Positions 7,181 through 48,899 of a stretch of DNA of 64,000 nucleotides are shown here, piece by piece. Location: the IMG/VR virus record IMGVR_UViG_2898615884_000001, positions 20,097 to 84,096 of that record, one strand, 5' to 3'. The position numbers and the translations under genes are program-made. Each line of letters begins with the position of its first letter. Positions within the stretch are counted from its first letter, which is position 1. This DNA is from a virus. Its lineage: Duplodnaviria; Caudoviricetes. Under the pieces are notes generated by a model that saw only the letters and a list, made by a program, of their open reading frames with translations, had not been told where the DNA came from and did not search any database.

Positions 7181-8863
7181 TCAGGCTCCCTTCGAGGTGG
7201 CGGGGACGGGGCGGGTGAACAGCGAGTCGAACTCGCTGGCGTCGGCCGCCGCGTCGGTTTCGCTACCCGGCGCGCCCGCGTCCTGGACGGGCACCAGGCC
7301 GGGCGCCAGCGACGCCAGCGCCTCCTTGGCGCCGGTCTCGTCCTTGTCCCAGTAGCTCTCCCAGTGGGGGCGGCGGACCGGCGGGAACTTCCCGGCCTTG
7401 ATGGCGTCGTCGAGGGCGCGGTCGCGTGCCTCGCGGCGCTGCTGGGCGCGGGCGGCCACACCTTCCAGGGCCTGCTCGCGGAGTTCGGCGAGAGCGGCCT
7501 CGTCGATCGTGACGGTGCCGGGCGCGAGCGTCTCGGCGGGGTCGGTGGCGGGGGCGGCCGGGGCGTCGCCGCCTTCACCCTCGGGGTCGGCCGGGGCCTG
7601 GTCCTCGGGGTCGCCGGCGGGCGCCGGTGGGGTGGGCGTGATGCCCTGGGTGGTGAGGGCGGTCCTCACCTCGTCGTCGGTGGCCTCGGGAGAGAGCCCC
7701 AGGGCCTGACGGAGCAGAGCCGCATCCATGGGCTCTCCCTCCTGGTTGTGGTTACCCTCGACCGCGGTCGCGGCAGGGGGGTCTGTGTGCGCCTGCTCGG
7801 CGGGCGCGGGGTCCGGCTCGGCGCCGTCCGGGTCGGCTGCCTGCGGCTCGGTGGCCGTGTCCTCGGTCGTGTTCTCGGTCGCGTCCTGGCCTTCGGCTGC
7901 TGCGGCCGGGCGGTCACTGGGACGCGACTCGGCGCGCGAGGCATACCGCAGCACCGGCGGCCGCGACGACGCGGCAGCGACCGCCGCGACCCCGGCAGGG
8001 GCGTCCTCGTACCGCACCACGACCTTGACCGGATCGGCGAAGGTCACAGCATCCTCGCCGTCACCCTCACCGATGGTGACCGGCACCCGCGACAGGCCAC
8101 CGGTGGAGTCGTCCATCACGATCAGCTGCAGGTCGGGGCCGAGCTGCATCTCACAAATCCAGACGTCCCAGCCCGAGCCGTACTCGGAGCTGTAGAACGC
8201 GCGGCGGACGTCATCGGTGGAGACGCCCGCCCGGACTGTGGCGGGGTTGGGGTTGGGCACGGCGTCCTCCCGGGCGGCGTGGGTAGTGGACGAGGCGGCG
8301 GCGCGGATCGTCACGGCGACCGGCACCCCGGCTCCGGCCGGATCAGTAGCGGCGGCGACGTCGTACAGCGCGGCGACGTCCTGGAGGGACTGCAGCGTCC
8401 CGATCCCCGGAGGGACCACGCCGAGCAGCGCGACAGCGGTGATCACGAACGGGTGGGTGTGGCCGAGCTGGCACCGGTGGTCGTACCGGCCCTCAATGGA
8501 CCGGTCGGGGTAGGCGGACGCCAGGAACTGCCCGTCCATCCAGGCGGGCATCCCGGCGTAGTCCCCGACCAATGTCTGGCCGCCCTCGACGGTGGCCATG
8601 TTCGCGATGTAGCCGACGGCGGGTTCGCCGTCCCAGCGCTGCCCGTTCTCGTCAGGGTCGGGCTCAGCGTGGCCGAGCTTGAGGACCGGGCGACGGACGG
8701 CCGGGCAGTCGAGGGCGGCGACAGCGGCGGCGAGGTCCCCGGCGGTGAAGTTGGCGATGCCGGTGGAGATCGGCCACTGCCCGACGTGCATGAGCTCCAC
8801 GTTGGGGACCGTGACGAGCGCGGGCGGCACGGTCACCGTGACCTCGGGCGCCGGGTCGGTCAT
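7181..8863 (-). CDS. Mu gpI-like capsid maturation protease plus scaffold
   Basis: VPNVELMHVGQW...VLKLGH...AYPDRSIEG...VALLGVVPP protease part; acidic helical scaffold C-terminus; ATGA overlap with the portal stop. Confidence 0.78.
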   Translation of the reverse strand: MTDPAPEVTVTVPPALVTVPNVELMHVGQWPISTGIANFTAGDLAAAVAALDCPAVRRPVLKLGHAEPDPDENGQRWDGEPAVGYIANMATVEGGQTLVGDYAGMPAWMDGQFLASAYPDRSIEGRYDHRCQLGHTHPFVITAVALLGVVPPGIGTLQSLQDVAALYDVAAATDPAGAGVPVAVTIRAAASSTTHAAREDAVPNPNPATVRAGVSTDDVRRAFYSSEYGSGWDVWICEMQLGPDLQLIVMDDSTGGLSRVPVTIGEGDGEDAVTFADPVKVVVRYEDAPAGVAAVAAASSRPPVLRYASRAESRPSDRPAAAAEGQDATENTTEDTATEPQAADPDGAEPDPAPAEQAHTDPPAATAVEGNHNQEGEPMDAALLRQALGLSPEATDDEVRTALTTQGITPTPPAPAGDPEDQAPADPEGEGGDAPAAPATDPAETLAPGTVTIDEAALAELREQALEGVAARAQQRREARDRALDDAIKAGKFPPVRRPHWESYWDKDETGAKEALASLAPGLVPVQDAGAPGSETDAAADASEFDSLFTRPVPATSKGA

Positions 8864-11238
8864 GAGTCCGGCCAGACCGCGACAAGCACGCCGCGGCACC
8901 GCAGGCGGCCGAGACATTCGATGTAGCCGCCCGCCGCGTAGGCGGCGCCTGCCGCCTCACGGGAGTCGAACTCTGTGCCATCGATCTCGACGCAGTTCTT
9001 GCAGGTGCCGGTGTCCAGGACTTCCGACGCGACGTAGGTGGCCTCACCGGCGTCCATGAGGGTGGCCCAGCGGCCGTGCGCCTGGGCGGCCCACAGCGCC
9101 CCGCCGAGCTGCTCACGCGGCCACGCATCCGTCAGCCCCTCCATATGGGAGCGGACCAGCCCGGCGACGTCCTCGCCCGACGCGCCGGGAGTCCAAACGC
9201 GTAGGGCTTCCCGCCCGGCCGCGTCCGCCGTGGCAGAACCCATCAGCGCGGCGATGGTGTCGGCCAGCGCACGGAGTGCGTCCTCGTCCAGTTCGGGCGT
9301 GGCCAGGTCGACACCTTGGGACGCGGCCTCGGCCACGACCTGCCCGGCGCCGGTCGAGGCCATCGCCAGCAGGGCGGGCGCCAGGACCTCGGCCGCGGCG
9401 GAGGTGTCGAGGGTGAGCGCAGCGAGCTGCGCCGTCTCCGCCGCCACGACGGCGGCAGCGACCTGTTCGACGAGCGCGTCGGTCTGCGCGGCCTGCACCG
9501 CCGCCCACGCGGCGAGGAGATCCTCCAGCGCGGCGTCGTGGTCGGAGGCGATCTGGTCGGGGTCCATCCCGGCGGCGGCCTCGACGGTGGTGAGCTGCCG
9601 ATGCCCGGCTGCGCTGTCACCCGCCGCCCGAACATCGCCGCGCCGCGCCGTGCGCCTGCGGGGGCTGGCGCCGCGCGGCTGAGCGGCGGCTCGCGCGGGC
9701 GGCGCAGGCGGCGCGGCGCCGGCGTCGGGGAGCCTGGCGCCGGCGCCCTGCGGAAGGGCAGGCAGGCCGAGCCGCGCGCGGCGCTCATCGACGGTCAAAA
9801 ACGCTTCGCCGCGCGCGGTCGCCGCCGCGCGTGCCTGCACCTGCGGCGCCGTCGGCGCGGTCTCGGTGTCGGGTGGCGGCGCGTACCGCAGGTTGCTCGG
9901 CGTCGGAAGCTGGGCCCCCGCACCGCCTGGCAGCGGCGGCAGATTGATCTGCGCGCGGCGCTCGTCCACCGTGAGGATGCCGTAATCCAGGTCGTAGGCG
10001 TACGACCGCTCCGCCGTGGCGATGTCGTCCCGCTTGCGCTTGGGCAGCCGGTAGGTGCCGCGCAGGTACGCCTCCAGGTCGTCGTCGGGGTGGATGACCC
10101 CCGAGGACACCAGCCCCTGAAGGGCCTCGGCCGTGAGGTCGTGGCGGCGGCCCACGTCGGTGCACACGACCCTCGGCGCCGGCTCGTCCTCACCCCAATT
10201 CACGTCAACGAGGTCGGTGACGATCCCGGTCAGGCCGGGCTGCCCGGAGGTGGCGACGTCGGCGACCTCGTCCGCGACCGCCTGCAGCGACAGCAGGAAC
10301 TGGTCGATGAACGATTCGCCCAGCGCGCGGCTTCCGGTCTGGGTCTGGCCGAGGTCGAGGAACCCCGCCAGGGCGAGGGTGGACATCTGCTGGTCGAGGT
10401 AGCGGACGAACTCGACGGTGTCCGGGACTGATCCGCTGAGGCCGGTGAGATTGACCTTGAAACCGTGCGGGACACCGACCCCGGCCTGGTCTCCGACTCG
10501 CATCGAGGACGCGAGCCGCTGCGCCTCCTGCACCTGCGCGGGCGTCGCGCCCGTGGGGGCCTCGACGTTCGGGACACCCATCCCGAACCGCCGGTTCGAT
10601 GTGGCGTGCACACGCCACATCTCGTGTTTCAGCAGCCAAGGCCCGTAGGCGGCGCGGAGCAGAGACCGGCCGGTCCAGGTGGCGCCCTCCCGGTCATGCG
10701 CGTACCACACCAGCCGGTTCGCGGTCATTGGTGTCGTCCACGCCAGGTCCTGGGTGACGCTTTGGATGGTGCCGTCGCGGTTCAGGTTGATCATCGCGAG
10801 CGTCCACGGCATCCGCTCGCCCAGGTTGATCAGCCGTGCGAGGCCGCCGCGGATCTCGTAGCGGCGCTCGAACACGGCGTGGCCGTAGACCAGGGACAGC
10901 AGGGCGAGGCGGAGATGCTCGGCCCAGGACACACCACGGCGGCGCGCCGGGCCAGGCACGGCGTCGGCGCCGAGGATCGGCACGCCGAGGTCGTCAGCCA
11001 CGACCTGGACGACCTCGTCGCGGCACCCGGCGGGATCGATGGCCCAGGTCGCGCGGCGGATCGGCAACGAGTAGGCCTTGAGAATCGCCGTGAGCTTGGG
11101 GTCGTGGCGCATCCGGGAGTACATCCGAACGCTGAGGGGCCAGGCCAGGTCGGGGACGAACTCGTTGACGTCGACCCACTGCGCGCCGACGACGTCGGCG
11201 AAGTCGATCGTTCCGAGGTCCTTCGTGGGTGGCGCCAT
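8860..11238 (-). CDS. Portal protein (DUF935/Mu gp29-like) fused to a MuF-like head morphogenesis domain
   Basis: Follows TerL; LLSLVYGHAVFE, RAAYGPWLLK portal motifs; C-terminal SEVLDTGTCKNC...CLGRLRCRG. Confidence 0.85.
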   Translation of the reverse strand: MAPPTKDLGTIDFADVVGAQWVDVNEFVPDLAWPLSVRMYSRMRHDPKLTAILKAYSLPIRRATWAIDPAGCRDEVVQVVADDLGVPILGADAVPGPARRRGVSWAEHLRLALLSLVYGHAVFERRYEIRGGLARLINLGERMPWTLAMINLNRDGTIQSVTQDLAWTTPMTANRLVWYAHDREGATWTGRSLLRAAYGPWLLKHEMWRVHATSNRRFGMGVPNVEAPTGATPAQVQEAQRLASSMRVGDQAGVGVPHGFKVNLTGLSGSVPDTVEFVRYLDQQMSTLALAGFLDLGQTQTGSRALGESFIDQFLLSLQAVADEVADVATSGQPGLTGIVTDLVDVNWGEDEPAPRVVCTDVGRRHDLTAEALQGLVSSGVIHPDDDLEAYLRGTYRLPKRKRDDIATAERSYAYDLDYGILTVDERRAQINLPPLPGGAGAQLPTPSNLRYAPPPDTETAPTAPQVQARAAATARGEAFLTVDERRARLGLPALPQGAGARLPDAGAAPPAPPARAAAQPRGASPRRRTARRGDVRAAGDSAAGHRQLTTVEAAAGMDPDQIASDHDAALEDLLAAWAAVQAAQTDALVEQVAAAVVAAETAQLAALTLDTSAAAEVLAPALLAMASTGAGQVVAEAASQGVDLATPELDEDALRALADTIAALMGSATADAAGREALRVWTPGASGEDVAGLVRSHMEGLTDAWPREQLGGALWAAQAHGRWATLMDAGEATYVASEVLDTGTCKNCVEIDGTEFDSREAAGAAYAAGGYIECLGRLRCRGVLVAVWPDS

Positions 11239-11347
11239 GCATTCACCCCCTGACCTGCGTGTTTAGTTTTGTTCTGCGGCGCAGTGACGGCGGGATGCCC
11301 CGACCTCCCTTGCCCAGGGAGGTCAGGCGGTGATCGAGCTCAAGCGG

Positions 11348-26844: not shown

Positions 26845-28218
26845 GTGCGGGATACCGCAGAGCAGGCTCCCGCCGGGGCCGAGGCCGACCCGCCACCCGC
26901 CCCACCCCCCGAACACCACAACCCCGCGCCCGCGGAGGACATCGAGCGGACGCCACAGCCGGCCGAGGACGCGCCCCGTCCCGCGCAGGTGGTCGCCGGA
27001 CCCTCGGCAGCGATGGCCGCCGAGGTCGCGACCGCCGTGCCCGCCGCGCTGTTCCACGCCGGGGGTTGGATCGGTCTGGCCGCCGGCGCGGCCGCCGTGG
27101 TCGGGACGGGCGCGGCCGGGGTCGCCGGGCGCCGCCGGGTGGGTACTTCAGGGCGGGCGTGGACGCGGACCCGGACGTGGTCGACGGGCGGCCGGTCGAG
27201 CGCGGCGAAGATGCGGATGCCCGGCACAGGCTCGACGCGAGCGAGTGGGAGCCGGACGCCGCAGTCGTTCGGACGCTCACCCGCCAAGGGCGGCGCCACG
27301 GGCGGCCGGGCCGCTGGCATGCGCGCGGGCGGGGTCGCGGGACGGGCAAGGGCCGGGCGGCTCGGATCCGCGGCACGCCGCGCCACGGCCAGCCCAGCGG
27401 TGAGCGGCCCCGCCCGAGCAGCCCGCCGCGCCACCGCCGCGACCGGCCGAGCCGCGCGCTCGGGATCCCGGAGCACCCGACGCGGCATGGACCACGCGAC
27501 GACCGCCGCCATCCGGAACGCCCGCGCCGCCCGCGCCGCACACCGCGCCGTCGCCGGCGGCGGCACCGGACGCGACGCCGCACGCGCCGCACGCGCATCC
27601 CTGAAGGATTCCCACGCCCACCCCACCCGGATCCGGTGGCGGCGCCTCGCCGGGGCGGGCCTGTGGAGCGCGGCGGCCTGGACCTACGGGCGGAGCTACA
27701 CCGCGAGCCGGACACTCGCCCGGCGGGCGATGGCACGCCTACGCGGCCAGGACCCGGCGGACACCGACGCCGAGCGCGACCAGCCGCGGATCGAAACAAA
27801 AGTGAACCGGCCGACCGACCCGGCGGCCAACACCAGCAGAGGAGAAGACATGACCCGACGTGAGAGCGGAGGTGGCGTGCCGTCGTTCGTCGCAACGGCG
27901 CAGGAGCATGCCGAGTCCCTCGCCCGGTACGAGCCGCCGCCCGGCGCGGGCGGGATGGTGCAGATGTACCACGACATCGAGATGCTGCCCGACGCGCTGG
28001 CGTGGATCGCCCAAGGGTTCGAGCGGATGGCCACACGGTGCCGTAAGGAACTGCCATTGCACCCCGCGATCAGTGAGCTGGTCGTTGAGCTAGCGAAGAC
28101 CCAGACCCGCATGGCGTCGGTCGCGGCGGAGATCAAGCCCGCGATCACCAAACTGCACGAGGAGGACCTGAAGCGCCACGAAGCGCCGCGTCCCAGCGAA
28201 GAGCGGTGGAACGTCTGA
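26845..28218 (+). CDS. TraA-like plasmid transfer protein (TM segment, Arg/Gly-rich linker, conserved C-terminal domain)
   Basis: SD GGAGGA before GTG; C-terminus LHEEDLKRHEAPRPSEERWNV; TGATG-coupled to traB. Confidence 0.6.
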   Translation: MRDTAEQAPAGAEADPPPAPPPEHHNPAPAEDIERTPQPAEDAPRPAQVVAGPSAAMAAEVATAVPAALFHAGGWIGLAAGAAAVVGTGAAGVAGRRRVGTSGRAWTRTRTWSTGGRSSAAKMRMPGTGSTRASGSRTPQSFGRSPAKGGATGGRAAGMRAGGVAGRARAGRLGSAARRATASPAVSGPARAARRATAATGRAARSGSRSTRRGMDHATTAAIRNARAARAAHRAVAGGGTGRDAARAARASLKDSHAHPTRIRWRRLAGAGLWSAAAWTYGRSYTASRTLARRAMARLRGQDPADTDAERDQPRIETKVNRPTDPAANTSRGEDMTRRESGGGVPSFVATAQEHAESLARYEPPPGAGGMVQMYHDIEMLPDALAWIAQGFERMATRCRKELPLHPAISELVVELAKTQTRMASVAAEIKPAITKLHEEDLKRHEAPRPSEERWNV

Positions 28219-30425
28219 TGGGCGGCGTGGATTGGCGGTGGCGGCACGGGACGGTGTCCGGGCCCTTGCACGCGACGATCGCGCTGGCGACCGCCTACGA
28301 AGTCGGGACGCTGCCCGTCCTGGACGTCTCCCCGGAATGGGTCCTGATCGGCGGCGCGACCGCGGCCGGGGTGACGAGCTGGCGCGCGGCCCACGACGGC
28401 CGCTCCTGGCTCGGCCTCGGCTACCGGATCGCAGGCATCAGCGGCAGCACCCTCTGGCTGGCGCAGGCCGTCACGACCGGGTGGACGGCCACGCTCGGGT
28501 GGACGCTCGCGGCGGGCGCGGTCACCGCCGCCGGGCTTGCGCGCCCGATCCGCGCCCGCGACCGCGTCGTCGCCGAACGGCACGCCGCACAGGAAGCCGC
28601 GGCGTCCGTAGCCGCCGTGGACGCGGCCGAGCAGGAACGCTTGACGGGCATCGCCGGGGAGTGGGTCACCCGGATCGAGCGGGTGACCCAAATCGTGCTG
28701 CGCCCCCTCGACCCCCGCACCGGGAAGCGGCCACCAGTGCAGCAAGTCGTCGTCGCCGTCGAGCACTGGATGTTCCCCGGCCCCGGCGGTGTCGAGCGGT
28801 GCACCGGCTACACCCTGGAACTGGTCCTCCCGACCACGGGCGTGACGTGGCAGACGCTCTCCAATTACCAGGACAACCTCGCCGCGGCCGCCGACCTGCC
28901 CCAGGGGTGCGGGGTCGAGATCGGGCCGGGCAGGTCACGGCGCCGCGCGCTCATCGAGGTGTCCATCGTCGATGCGCTCCGCGACGACATCGCCCTCCCA
29001 CTGCCCACCGAACCCCGCACGATCAACAACCCGATCCCCGTCGGAGTGGTCCGCAACGGCGCGCAGGCGGACGTGCCGCTGCGCTACAGCTGCGCCGTCC
29101 TGGTCGGCGCGACCGGGTCGGGGAAGAGCAACGAGCTGCAGACGATCGTGGCCGGGCTGCTGTCCTGCCATGACGTGCTGGTCCTGGTGATCGACTACAA
29201 CGGCGGCGGCGTCGCGTTGCCGTGGCTGTCGCCCTGGGTCGACGGGACGATCGCCCGGTCCCCGATCCTGTGGGTGGCCGACAACGAACACGAGGCCATC
29301 ATGATGTGCGACTGGCTGATCGCCGCGATCGAGCACCGCAAACGGGCCTACCACGCCGCGAACCAGGCCCGTGACGACGACAAGCTCGCCGCAACCCCCG
29401 CCACCCCGCAGCTGGTGCTGGTCACCGACGAAGCGGGCGCGACTGGCCGCGAGGTCACCAAACGGATCGCGCAGATCTCCGACCGCGGACGCGCGGCGGC
29501 GGTGCGGACGGTGACGTGCGCGCTGCGGGCGCTGTCGGAGTACATCCCGACCGAGGTCCTCGCCCAGGCGCAGGTCCGCATCGGCATGAAGGTCAACGAC
29601 CGCAAGGAGCTGGGCTACCTCTACGACTGGGCGGGGGGCCGGGGCGGGCCGTCGCCGGAGGACGCGCCGCACACCGGCTACGGGCATGTGCGGTCGGGGC
29701 AGGAGCCGCCGCGGGTGTTCAAGGGGTATCGGACGTCGCCGTCGATGATCCGTGCGGTGGCGGTGGCGCAGGATGCGTGGCGGCCGGAGCTGGATGAGGT
29801 GACGTTGCGGATGTCGGCGGAGTGGCAGCGGGTGTTCGAGGAGCGGTGGCAGCGCTCGGCGCATCTGCTCGCGGCCGCCGGTGGACGAATGCCCGTCCCG
29901 TCGGCGGGTGGTGGAAGCCCTGAGCGGCGGGAGCGGCAGGCCCCGACGGGGCGGGGTGCGCTCCCGCCGACGCCCCCGGACGGACCGGACGCGGGGTCGA
30001 AGTTCGCCGGGCTGAACGACGCGCTCGCCGACCTGGACGCCGCCGCCGAACGGCTCCGCAACGCCACCCCGGACACGCCCGCCGGGCCGCGCGACGACGC
30101 CGCCGACGCCGCCGCGTTCGAGGCGATCGTCGCCTACGAGGTCGTCGTCCCCGAACTCGTCGTGCGCGTCCTCGCTGCGATGGGCTCCGCCGAGCGGATG
30201 CACACCCGGCAGATCGCCGAGAAGATCGGCAGCCGCGCCGAGTCGCTCGGGGGGCTGCTGTCCCAGCTCGACATCCGGCCGCTCAAGTCGGACTTCACGG
30301 TGGACGGGCGCCGCGGCCGCGGGTACGAGCGCGCGGAGGTCGAGGCGGCCGCCGAGCGGATCCGGTCGGGTGAGCTGGTGCCGCCGGAGGAGGTCGCGCG
30401 GTGGCGCCCGGACGCGCCGGCCTGA
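28218..30425 (+). CDS. traB: FtsK/SpoIIIE-like conjugative DNA translocase TraB
   Basis: N-terminal TM helices, Walker A GATGSGKS, Walker B LVLVTDE, GRAAAV, C-terminal winged helix. Confidence 0.88.
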   Translation: MGGVDWRWRHGTVSGPLHATIALATAYEVGTLPVLDVSPEWVLIGGATAAGVTSWRAAHDGRSWLGLGYRIAGISGSTLWLAQAVTTGWTATLGWTLAAGAVTAAGLARPIRARDRVVAERHAAQEAAASVAAVDAAEQERLTGIAGEWVTRIERVTQIVLRPLDPRTGKRPPVQQVVVAVEHWMFPGPGGVERCTGYTLELVLPTTGVTWQTLSNYQDNLAAAADLPQGCGVEIGPGRSRRRALIEVSIVDALRDDIALPLPTEPRTINNPIPVGVVRNGAQADVPLRYSCAVLVGATGSGKSNELQTIVAGLLSCHDVLVLVIDYNGGGVALPWLSPWVDGTIARSPILWVADNEHEAIMMCDWLIAAIEHRKRAYHAANQARDDDKLAATPATPQLVLVTDEAGATGREVTKRIAQISDRGRAAAVRTVTCALRALSEYIPTEVLAQAQVRIGMKVNDRKELGYLYDWAGGRGGPSPEDAPHTGYGHVRSGQEPPRVFKGYRTSPSMIRAVAVAQDAWRPELDEVTLRMSAEWQRVFEERWQRSAHLLAAAGGRMPVPSAGGGSPERRERQAPTGRGALPPTPPDGPDAGSKFAGLNDALADLDAAAERLRNATPDTPAGPRDDAADAAAFEAIVAYEVVVPELVVRVLAAMGSAERMHTRQIAEKIGSRAESLGGLLSQLDIRPLKSDFTVDGRRGRGYERAEVEAAAERIRSGELVPPEEVARWRPDAPA

Positions 30426-30631
30426 CCCCCACACCCCCTCCCACACCCGGGGTGTGGGAGGGGGTGTGTCAGGGGTGTGGGACCCACACCCACCCCCACA
30501 CCCCCCACAGCCCGCTGACCTGCGTAAACCACACCCCCACACCCCCCACACCCCTCCGTGCGAGGGGCCCCTTCCCCGGGCCAGGGGACCGCGCACACCC
30601 CCCGGCCGGGAGGGGTGTGGGGGGTGTGGGA
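30426..30631. repeat. clt-like cis-acting transfer locus (CCACACC repeats)
   Basis: 11 exact CCACACC copies (7 forward, 4 reverse) plus near matches, directly after traB; includes a near-perfect palindrome at 30430-30468. Confidence 0.7.
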
Positions 30632-30650
30632 GACCGAGAGGACACACACG

Positions 30651-31532
30651 ATGAGCACGCAGAAACGCCCCGGCCTGATCTGGGCGTGCGCGGTCCTGAC
30701 CATCGCAGCCGCCAACCAGCTCCTCTGGAACCTGTGGCACGCCTTCGACACCGGCATGCCGCACCCGCTGGCCGTCGCGACCGGCGCAGTGCCCGTGCTG
30801 CTCGCGCTCGGCACCTCCGCGCTCGCGGCCAGGGTCCGGTGCGGCAACGTGCAGCGGACCCTGACGTACGGCGTGATGCTCGCGGCGATCGGGATCTCGA
30901 TCCTGGCGCAGTACGACCTGCTGATGCACTGGATGGGGAGCAAGGCGGTCGCGGTGTTGTTCCCGACCGTGGGCGACCTGGCGACGCTGATCGCTCTGCA
31001 CGTGTTGATCGCCGACCCGGTCCCGGTGCGGGTGGCGGCACCGGTCCGTACGAAGGAGAAGACCCGTACGACGACGGTCCGTACGGCGCAGCCGGTGATC
31101 TGTGAGAGGTCGATCGGGACGCCGTACGTACGGGCGCCGCAGGGCGTTCTGCGGGCCGTACGGAACGAGCAGTACGTGCCGGAGCGTACGGGCGAAGAGA
31201 CCCGTACGCCGGAGCCGCGTACGCCTTCCGGCGAGCCCCGTACGGCCGAACACGCGGCCCGTACGCGCGCCGTGGTGTCCGCCCGTACGACCCGTACGGA
31301 CCAGGTCAGCGCACCCGTACGGGGCGTACGGGAAGGCCGCGCGCACTGGGTCGAGGTGCTGGCCGACGAGATCCGTACGGCCCGTACGGAAGGCCGTACG
31401 TGGGAACCGGCGTACGTCGAGCTGGAGGCCCGTACGGGGTGGGGCCGGTCGTGGTGCGAGAAGACCGTACGGGCCGCGCGCGAGGCGGCCGAGGAACGTA
31501 CGGGCACCCGTACGGGCACCGACGACGCCTAG
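30651..31532 (+). CDS. Spd/DUF2637-like membrane protein with repeat linker and C-terminal HTH
   Basis: Four N-terminal TM segments, Arg-Thr repeat linker, AYVELEARTGWGRSWCEKTVR. Confidence 0.7.
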   Translation: MSTQKRPGLIWACAVLTIAAANQLLWNLWHAFDTGMPHPLAVATGAVPVLLALGTSALAARVRCGNVQRTLTYGVMLAAIGISILAQYDLLMHWMGSKAVAVLFPTVGDLATLIALHVLIADPVPVRVAAPVRTKEKTRTTTVRTAQPVICERSIGTPYVRAPQGVLRAVRNEQYVPERTGEETRTPEPRTPSGEPRTAEHAARTRAVVSARTTRTDQVSAPVRGVREGRAHWVEVLADEIRTARTEGRTWEPAYVELEARTGWGRSWCEKTVRAAREAAEERTGTRTGTDDA

Positions 31533-31549
31533 CCAAACGGGGCCGTACG
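31047..31549. repeat. Dense array of palindromic CGTACG sites
   Basis: 24 copies counted by eye in about 500 bp, mostly as CCGTACG. Confidence 0.85.
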
Positions 31550-31561
31550 AGGCGGCCCCGT
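31537..31561 (+). other. Intergenic hairpin
   Basis: ACGGGGCCG-N7-CGGCCCCGT. Confidence 0.5.
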
Positions 31562-31585
31562 ACACACCAAGCGAAGGAGAAGGCA

Positions 31586-31951
31586 GTGCCGACGATCATC
31601 ACCTTGCCGGTCGAGATCTCAGAGGACGTCGTCCGCGCGGCGGCGCAGGGCCGAGTCCGGCAGTGGGTCGGGCCGGAGATCGCCGAGGACGTCGTACGCG
31701 CCGTCTTGGCCGACGTCCTGGGAGAGGAGAGCGACGGCCAGCTGCCCGAGCAGTCGAGGCCGGACGCGGACGAGGACGCCGTGGCGGTGTTGATGCGCAA
31801 GTACCTCGGAGTGGACCCGGCGACCGTGAGCGTGCGGAAGGTCCGGGCGGACCTGGGCGGCGCTCGGCACGACCGAGCGGTGCGCGTGAAGGACCTGTGG
31901 ACGGCGAGGTACGCGGCGGCGTTCGGCGGCCGCGCGACCGTACCGGCCTGA
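31586..31951 (+). CDS. Small protein with C-terminal HTH (Spd-like)
   Basis: SD AAGGAG; VSVRKVRADLGGARHDRAVRVKDLW. Confidence 0.6.
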   Translation: MPTIITLPVEISEDVVRAAAQGRVRQWVGPEIAEDVVRAVLADVLGEESDGQLPEQSRPDADEDAVAVLMRKYLGVDPATVSVRKVRADLGGARHDRAVRVKDLWTARYAAAFGGRATVPA

Positions 31952-32009
31952 ATCTCTGAACGGACCGGCCGTCGAGCCGGTGGAACCGATCATCGAAAGG
32001 ACAGGAACC

Positions 32010-47732: not shown

Positions 47733-48899
47733 TCAGCCGGTCTGGTCGGGGGCGACCGCGCGCTCCGCCGCCCACTTGCGCTTCAGGTCAGCGAGCAGCG
47801 GCGCGGCCGCGCGGTAGTCCTCGCCGGAGGTGGTGTCGTACAGCGGCGCGGCCTCGGCCGACTCGACATCCGCGTCGGGTTCGTCGGGTTCGTCCGGGAC
47901 GGCGTGAATGAACAGCGGGGGCTGCGTCGCGGCCGAGTCGCTCGTGGCACCGCCGGGCAGGAAACGCAGTTCCGGGGGCGGCAACTCCTCGCCCGGCTCG
48001 GCGCCTGCGGCCTGTCCCTCAGTCCTGGTCTGGATCGCCCCGACGATGTCCGCGAGATGCCCGCGCTCGACCATCCGCTGGAGGTACGGGATCGGGTTCC
48101 GGATCGGGTCGGCCGCCCGCGCCTTCGCTGCTTCCCATGCGTCGGCGGCCTCGGGGTCAGTCAGTCCGTAGTTCGACGAGAGCCAGCGGAGCGCCTCGCG
48201 CACGCGCGCACGCGCGTAGACCGACTGATCTCCTTCACCTTCTCCACTAGGGGAACCACCGGCAGGTGGAACGGGACGGGACTGGGACGGGACTGGGACG
48301 GGAGGATTCGGGGGCGAATCGGGTACCCGATGAACGACCCGATCGGGTACCCGATAACCCTGCTGGTCAGACGAGGTATCGCTCGCATCGGGTTGAGAGT
48401 TATCCACAGGCGAATCGGACATCGGGTTTGGAGCAACCCGATGCGAACCCGATGGCATACCCGATGAAGCACCCGATGCGCCGCGACCCCCGTTCCCGGG
48501 GCCACCCTTCTGGCAGTAGCGGCACGACGGATCGGTCTTCCCCTTCCCCTCATGCCACCGCCGGTGGTTCCCCAGCTCACCACCGGACGACATCTTCTTC
48601 CGGCCCGCGATCGCCTCGTCCCGGGTCGGGTTCCGGACCGTCCCGTCGGCATCGACAGCCCACTCGTGGAACTGATAGCCGCCCTGTGCCCGCTCCCAGA
48701 ACCCGGCCTTGACGAGTTCCTCTGCCAGCTCGACCTGGCCGCGAGACAGCGCCGGGATCATGTGCTCGGGGATGAACCCGTCGGTTAGCTGGTCGCTGGA
48801 CCAGGATCCGGCCACGGTCCACAACCCCATTGCGGTGAGCGAAGCGGCCCACGTCTTTGAGTGGGAGTGGAGGTGATCGTCCACCTTGAACCAGGTCAC
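47733..48899 (-). CDS. Replication initiator 2 (actinophage WFKVDD type)
   Basis: MTWFKVDD...AMGLWTVAGSWS..QLTDGFIP...LVKAGFW...GYQFHEW; PSQSRPVP linker. Confidence 0.82.
   Translation of the reverse strand: MTWFKVDDHLHSHSKTWAASLTAMGLWTVAGSWSSDQLTDGFIPEHMIPALSRGQVELAEELVKAGFWERAQGGYQFHEWAVDADGTVRNPTRDEAIAGRKKMSSGGELGNHRRWHEGKGKTDPSCRYCQKGGPGNGGRGASGASSGMPSGSHRVAPNPMSDSPVDNSQPDASDTSSDQQGYRVPDRVVHRVPDSPPNPPVPVPSQSRPVPPAGGSPSGEGEGDQSVYARARVREALRWLSSNYGLTDPEAADAWEAAKARAADPIRNPIPYLQRMVERGHLADIVGAIQTRTEGQAAGAEPGEELPPPELRFLPGGATSDSAATQPPLFIHAVPDEPDEPDADVESAEAAPLYDTTSGEDYRAAAPLLADLKRKWAAERAVAPDQTG
48318..48479. repeat. Putative origin 2: ATCGGGT/ACCCGAT iterons around a perfect DnaA box
   Basis: ATCGGGTACCCGAT palindromes at 48318 and 48342, further half-sites to about 48479; TTATCCACA at 48400-48408. 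Confidence 0.75.

Follow-up and report, generated by a model that had tools for sequence, protein, structure and literature searches.

The window, i.e. the whole 64-kb stretch of DNA that was analyzed, harbors on its plus strand a gene for a TraB-type, FtsK/SpoIIIE-like DNA translocase (28206-30425), identified by Pfam PF01580 and by a full-length match to phrog_31069 (E 1.9e-111). This gene is followed by 215 bp (30426-30640) with approximately 11 copies of a CCACACC(CC) repeat in both orientations, and then by an Spd-like gene (30651-31532, plus strand), whose reading frame is taken from the ORF list and agrees with the highest GC3 in frame and with homologues from Actinomadura. An ORF for 121 aa lies further downstream on the same strand (31586-31951). 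The order TraB, clt-like repeats, and Spd-like gene is the same in an element of Actinomadura litoris (L001) and in a locus of A. meridiana (L002), and in the loci examined the Spd-like gene was always found in a tra/spd context. In both L001 and L002, CCACACC repeats are likewise present 3' of traB, and TraB's C-terminal domain is conserved there, too. The repeats resemble published clt loci, e.g. that of pJV1, which consists of nine CCGCACA(C/G)(C/G) repeats (PMC3583192), and they are the probable TraB recognition locus (clt). Since 7181-11262 of the window codes for a portal protein (phrog_113, E 9.5e-66) as well as for a head maturation protease (phrog_3894, E 6e-107), the TraB/Spd module sits in a prophage-like element.

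The product of the Spd-like gene (293 aa) is composed of four transmembrane helices, a linker, and a C-terminal three-helix domain. The N-terminal helices, already claimed in an earlier note on this DNA, were confirmed by a Kyte-Doolittle scan and charge counts at residues ~7-26, 39-60, 73-93, and 98-124 (encoded at 30669-31022, plus strand), with none beyond residue 130. The linker (residues 127-215) is basic and of low complexity, with 18 K+R vs 9 D+E. The positive-inside rule suggests an N-in/C-in topology with a cytoplasmic tail. Searches of the protein against Pfam and PHROG returned no family match, and tblastn against PLSDB plasmids and INPHARED phages gave no match. It is not recognized by Pfam DUF2637 (PF10935) in hmmscan, even at E up to 5, and is absent from the six PF10935 matches of the genome. 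In the Atlas, DUF2637 clusters come closest to it (score 0.87; structure TM 0.65), a likeness that comes exclusively from language-model and structure look-alikes and serves as a lead only.

Within and just behind this gene, the hexamer CGTACG is densely repeated. An exact search found 40 copies in the window, whereas dinucleotide-preserving shuffles of the same 64 kb contain 16 on average and 31 at most. As the earlier note had claimed, 24 of them are concentrated at 31047-31549; those elsewhere are scattered, as it had also stated, their exact number being 16 instead of the dozen or so counted by eye. The array thus holds 24 sites in 503 bp (48 per kb), and the whole genome of 9.16 Mb contains 1799 copies (0.196 per kb), which corresponds to an approximately 240-fold enrichment. 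The exact k-mer comparison therefore shows enrichment both against the shuffles of the window and against the density in the genome, where the array is the sole real CGTACG cluster. Another region of the genome with at least five CGTACG per 500 bp was considered as a relative and rejected; it codes for an unrelated GSYGF tandem-repeat protein.

The repeated word extends by its flanking bases to approximately CCGTACGG, the consensus of the array. The full 8-mer is present at 10 array sites, one flanking base at 12, and neither at 2. The sites are irregularly spaced (4-49 bp), and the array is conserved in homologues. All but one lie within the ORF; the 24th (31544-31549) starts 12 nt 3' of the stop codon (31530-31532), and behind it comes a degenerate copy, CGTACA (31559-31564). 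The sequence read of 31544-31564 hence supports the statement that the array runs past the stop codon, with one exact and one degenerate site. Directly after the stop codon, a GC-rich inverted repeat with 7-bp arms (GGGGCCG...CGGCCCC, 31537-31557) precedes the ribosome-binding site of the next ORF, and by eye the last exact CGTACG falls inside this stem-loop. The window contains a second local word array at 48001-48500, also in-gene, in which ATCGGG/ACCCGA occurs 13 times per 500 bp.

No CGTACG arrays in conjugative elements are reported in the literature searched. In a pattern search for triple CGTACG over 300 family genomes, many of the inspected hits turned out to be regular tandem repeats. 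Genome G041 carries such repeats of 17-23 bp with CCGTACGG at dozens of loci, amounting to 385 triple-site hits (e.g. C23:648006-648268; L106, L110); they look like a phenomenon distinct from the irregular in-gene arrays. The idea that arrays are a general trait of DUF2637 genes was rejected. Among 29 high-scoring PF10935 loci out of 250 Actinomycetes genomes, 28 are at background, their best 6-mer reaching 4-10 (background mean 6.5, 95th percentile 9), and a single locus (L027, with the word CGAGACG) stands out. Because most canonical DUF2637 genes are devoid of arrays, the array is not a general Spd property. The PF10935 and triple-CGTACG tallies take in the unpublished genomes G313 and G125, and no specific claim depends on either.

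There is hardly any doubt that the array is kept by selection at the DNA level. The 23 sites within the ORF are read as CGT-ACG (Arg-Thr) in 16 cases, as GTA-CGG (Val-Arg) in five, and as xCG-TAC-Gxx, containing Tyr, in two, so that the word is used in all three reading frames. The claim that the sites encode Arg-Thr via CGT-ACG consequently holds for 16 of the 24; it fails for the Val-Arg and Tyr-containing sites and for the one past the stop codon. Codon usage was compared with 20 genes of the window (6884 codons), in which CGT accounts for 6% of Arg, ACG for 28% of Thr, and GTA for 1.9% of Val codons. CGTACG codes for 16 of the 17 Arg-Thr pairs in the Spd-like gene vs none of 35 in these reference genes. 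When the CDS was synonymously recoded 20,000 times according to local codon usage, the mean number of CGTACG was 1.5 and the maximum 7, against 24 observed.

Homologues with approximately 50% amino-acid identity, one from A. meridiana (L002) and two from metagenomes (L003 and L005), contain 23, 23, and 19 CGTACG, respectively, at aligned positions of the same gene. When the codons of the four genes are aligned, residues of the linker next to the sites prove freely variable, whereas the CGT-ACG and GTA-CGG codons are fixed. Where all four homologues share the amino acid, they also share the codon in 31 of 32 columns inside words vs 21 of 44 columns outside (Fisher p = 2.6e-6). Synonymous sites within the words are thus under purifying selection. 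Codon tests, three-frame use, and synonymous-site conservation all strongly support what the earlier note had proposed in this respect.

A candidate for the reader of the word is encoded by the same gene. The core of its C-terminal domain, here denoted domain A (residues 229-284; 31335-31502, plus strand), is proposed in this role based on an AlphaFold2 model and on co-variation with the word. The model, built from a 68-sequence alignment, has a pLDDT of 81.6 overall and 94-95 in the core, and shows helices at residues ~230-246, 255-262, and 266-282, the third of which comprises SWCEKTVRAAR. Residues 216-293 define a domain present in 91 clusters at 50% identity in a library of 1.8 billion proteins. 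It is mostly located C-terminally in proteins of 240-600 aa, in which RT is often the commonest dipeptide, and nine of the 68 domain-A proteins scanned carry DUF2637 (PF10935). Domain A matched no known family. A Foldseek search of the PDB with the model gave E > 1 (top rows GntR, sigma-4, and homeodomain proteins, all HTH), a VIA wide fold search gave Z < 6, and the domain profile against PDB sequences retrieved designed helical proteins only, nothing meaningful. As neither a family nor a significant fold match was obtained, HTH is a candidate label only for this domain; of the C-terminal HTH claimed earlier, the confident three-helix model stands, but a significant match to known HTH proteins is missing.

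In all 12 loci with the third helix RSWCEK(A/T)VR, the ORF contains 12-36 copies of the word CCGTAC. A diverged subgroup was retrieved in addition by a profile search of 300 family genomes, so that two helices can be compared over the last 900 nt. Eight loci with the helix SWCEK(A/T)VR contain 6-25 CGTACG and 0-4 CGTGCG/CGCACG; seven loci with an RWCEGVLA-like helix contain 0-2 CGTACG (6 in L103) and 6-20 CGTGCG/CGCACG, for which the genome background is 1.36 per kb. In two members of the latter group, L090 and L091, the 8-mer ACCGTGCG is present 11-13 times. Because the two groups differ in both respects, the word centre switches from TA to TG/CA along with the third helix. The check for words that differ among homologues and co-vary with the HTH was therefore positive, and other cassettes carry other words. 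Since array and domain are physically linked in one gene, some co-inheritance is expected even without interaction; as the loci are moreover kin and not independent, the co-variation is suggestive, not a statistical proof. The simple pairing of word and helix is weakened by L103, which carries both CGTACG and CGTGCG/CGCACG words, and by L010, a relative with an HTH-like tail devoid of an array. Taken together, binding of the array by domain A appears reasonably likely. The same genome encodes a second domain-A paralogue (G000:C34:348696-348857; L050/L102) in a 442-aa open frame with the third helix RRWCEGVVSQ. No CGTACG is present there; a weak enrichment of TCCGCA/GTGCGGA (7-11 copies) is seen.

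Array and domain appear to be exchanged together. In a blastn comparison with the Actinomadura litoris element (L001), identity to the window is 94% over 30612-31047, absent over 31048-31959, and 83.5% from 31960 onwards. The similarity stops exactly at the first array site, and the segment without a match (31048-31959, plus strand), comprising array, domain A, and the 121-aa ORF, delimits an exchangeable cassette. In L001, it is replaced by a cassette with approximately 40 GAACC/GGTTC words and a different C-terminal domain, which has a weak TetR_N helix-turn-helix match (E 0.004, under the cut-off). Three further loci (L006-L008) contain CGTACCG, CGGACCG, and GACCGGTC words, and their C-terminal domain is homologous to the 121-aa ORF of the window. 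The C-terminal half of this ORF corresponds to the 'type C' C-terminal domain of related Spd-like proteins (45% over 56 aa to the membrane-fused domain of P0007-P0009) and is free-standing here. No type-C word array was found near it, and neither this ORF nor the neighboring small ORFs belong to a Pfam or PHROG family. CCGGTCG/CGACCGG occurs 17 times in an Spd-like or DUF2637 gene of L016 (G218:C497), and CGAGACG/CGTCTCG 13 times in the bona fide PF10935 gene with an HTH-like tail of L027 (G527:C1:7168251-7171727). Asymmetric words are found in both orientations, which fits reading of double-stranded DNA. Most likely, array and reader constitute one cassette that diversified into several word/domain pairs.

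Several known systems share parts of this architecture. The closest precedent is SpdA2 from plasmid pIJ101 (Streptomyces lividans), which binds a palindrome in its own gene and affects plasmid stability (Thoma et al., 2014, PMC4170104). In both cases, an Spd-class protein of an actinomycete conjugative element is combined with a short palindrome in its own coding region, binding being known for SpdA2 and suggested here by co-variation. The palindrome shows as a repeated peptide motif in both, SRDD/E in SpdA2 vs RT/VR here. Synonymous recoding is the published test of SpdA2/sps, for which only a mild stability phenotype was found, with transfer and pocks unaffected (PMC4170104). SpdA2 is a small soluble protein of 135 aa (class 117-163 aa) with an N-terminal DNA-binding region, whereas the 293-aa protein of the window has four membrane helices in its N-terminal half and, at the C-terminus, a candidate reader that belongs to another family. 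Furthermore, sps is a 12-bp sequence, CGTCACGTGACG, which hardly varies among plasmids and has 1-3 copies; here, a word of 6-8 bp occurs in 12-40 copies and with several specificities. The sps palindrome itself had no match in the window at up to one mismatch.

TraB recognizes 8-bp repeats at clt (Vogelmann et al., 2011, as summarized in PMC4447253 and PMC3583192). The Spd-like protein resembles it as a membrane-anchored protein with a C-terminal DNA-reading domain (a candidate here) and a short word whose copies, irregularly spaced and oriented either way, fall into a few hundred bp at or adjoining the 3' end of the gene for the protein. Unlike TraB, which is an FtsK-like ATPase motor, the Spd-like protein is devoid of a motor or FtsK/SpoIIIE domain (no Pfam family), and the window has a separate clt-like array. 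The membrane protein SpdB2 of pSVH1 has four helices, oligomerizes, forms pores, binds dsDNA, and interacts with TraB (Tiffert et al., 2007; Thoma et al., 2015, PMC4447253). It is needed for intramycelial spreading, and homologues are found on actinophages (PMC4447253). The product of the Spd-like gene is likewise a four-helix integral membrane protein encoded beside traB. The dsDNA binding of SpdB2 is reported as non-specific with no site array described, and the window protein misses the Pfam DUF2637 threshold. Plasmid centromere arrays such as the heptad repeats of the pSM19035 omega protein or ParR/parC are contiguous and non-coding, and work with a ParA/ParM motor. They are alike in consisting of many very short words in both orientations, a multivalent platform for a small DNA-binding domain (as proposed here); the difference is that the sites of the Spd-like gene are interleaved with coding constraints.

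The explanation proposed for these observations is a self-encoded array of protein-binding sites for the membrane-anchored Spd-like protein, which would tether the DNA of the element; as a whole, we give this composite reading an even chance. The C-terminal three-helix domain of the Spd-like protein would be the likeliest reader of the array. Embedded in the membrane and probably oligomeric, the protein may bind many array sites together by its cytoplasmic tails. Such multivalent binding would fasten the double-stranded DNA of the element to the membrane, approximately 400 bp from the clt repeats where TraB would load. In this way, the TraB/Spd translocation complex could be offered the DNA for transfer and for spreading within the mycelium, or else the DNA could be retained in each hyphal compartment. 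The earlier note had suggested a centromere-like tether to the membrane or pore. This function as a tether for transfer, spreading, or stability, which we infer from the architecture and the published Spd biology, is put forward tentatively, at somewhat less than even confidence.

The main rival, compatible with tethering, is autorepression by the same protein-array interaction. The protein or a soluble tail of it would coat its own coding region and block transcription of the gene and the downstream operon, thereby limiting a potentially toxic (kil-like) membrane protein. The sites lie inside a transcribed gene and reach the ribosome-binding site of the next one, and kil-kor control of tra/spd genes is established in Streptomyces plasmids (PMC4447253). 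Codon conservation, recoding, and word/helix co-variation fit this reading as well as tethering. However, 20-40 sites over 500-900 bp far exceed the needs of known operators, no site cluster overlaps a promoter, and a membrane-anchored repressor would be unusual. Autorepression as the sole function is accordingly considered improbable.

If the array is a protein-binding site, it may be read in trans by another factor, with a host DNA-binding protein, the 121-aa ORF, and a repressor of Kor type as candidates. That domain A binds the array is a prediction, linkage alone could account for part of the co-variation, and host factors were suspected at sps by the authors of the SpdA2 study (PMC4170104). 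The protein encoded at 31586-31951 had been named in the earlier note as an alternative binder, a role that it loses, since no homologue is present at the 11 other CGTACG-array loci examined. A conserved host factor is at odds with the different words used by closely related elements of one genus, and any reader in trans with the central dinucleotide of the word, which varies in step with domain A's third helix. A reader other than the Spd-like protein itself is therefore rated as quite improbable. TraB, tried as array reader, was rejected: its C-terminus and the CCACACC repeats are constant among loci with the arrays CGTACG (window), GAACC (L001), and CGTACG (L002).

For related reasons, it is very improbable that the array serves as a second clt for loading or recognition by TraB. 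Such loci are clusters of short repeats adjoining or overlapping traB (PMC4447253, PMC3583192), and the array lies approximately 600 bp from the end of traB. Nevertheless, traB is directly followed by a separate CCACACC array, which L001 and L002 have kept along with the C-terminal domain of TraB, whereas L001 and the window have different Spd arrays. Because both TraB and the intergenic CCACACC repeats are conserved while the Spd arrays differ, TraB pairs with the latter repeats.

Iterons embedded in a coding sequence are known from phage lambda, whose origin lies within gene O, and would count for an origin of replication, as would the other in-gene word array of the window at ~48.0-48.5 kb. 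The protein O of lambda, a soluble replication initiator that acts on four 19-bp iterons and an AT-rich region, is similar in that the sites of the protein are written into the inter-domain linker of its own gene, as proposed here. Replication is not suggested by anything at this locus, though: the four-helix membrane protein encoded by the gene is devoid of Rep, primase, and helicase domains, reading of 31000-31600 revealed neither an AT-rich segment nor a DnaA box, and the gene is always in a tra/spd context. An origin is thus hardly credible. The same low credence is given to a constraint on mRNA or translation, by self-complementary CGUACG structures or by rare codons (CGT, GTA) slowing translation of the linker: the words do bring in rare codons and palindromes can pair in RNA, but selection for rare codons need not repeat one hexamer across three frames and also 3' of the stop codon, and neither the one-base word change that tracks a protein helix nor asymmetric words in both orientations, devoid of a nested arrangement, would be explained.

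Parts of the preferred reading, the Spd-like protein as a tether on its own array, are already known, namely an Spd protein whose site lies within the gene that encodes it (SpdA2/sps) and a membrane protein that recognizes repeats of a short word next to its gene (TraB/clt). New, with regard to the literature searched, are the dense array of 12-40 copies interleaved with linker-coding sequence, a candidate membrane-anchored reader from a domain family without assignment, and the modular build of the cassettes, which have several specificities, among them a change of the word in one step that goes along with the candidate recognition helix. The arrays are clear natural examples of overlapping codes, in which the chief conserved feature of a protein-coding stretch is a DNA word, and the locus shows transfer machinery carried by a prophage-like element. 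From the natural variants of helix and word (TA vs TG/CA), a specificity switch is predicted; if domain A reads the word, a clear preference for TA is expected among CCGTACGG, CCGTGCGG, and CCGCACGG.

On how Spd proteins move double-stranded DNA through the mycelium, the published evidence comprises non-specific DNA binding for SpdB2 and a mild phenotype for SpdA2/sps. If the tethering reading is true, the specificity step that is missing from this picture would come from a private multivalent array beside clt, and it is directly testable. In a wider, rather speculative generalization, the Spd-like proteins would represent an unrecognized class of membrane-anchored, sequence-specific DNA 'grippers' in actinomycete transfer modules, phage-borne ones included, each with its own word array in the linker-coding DNA and with reader and array exchanged as a cassette; at least five or six word specificities were seen here. 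Should such a class exist, every element would carry a private address label for docking at the membrane, which would decide which DNA spreads or stays in a shared mycelium.
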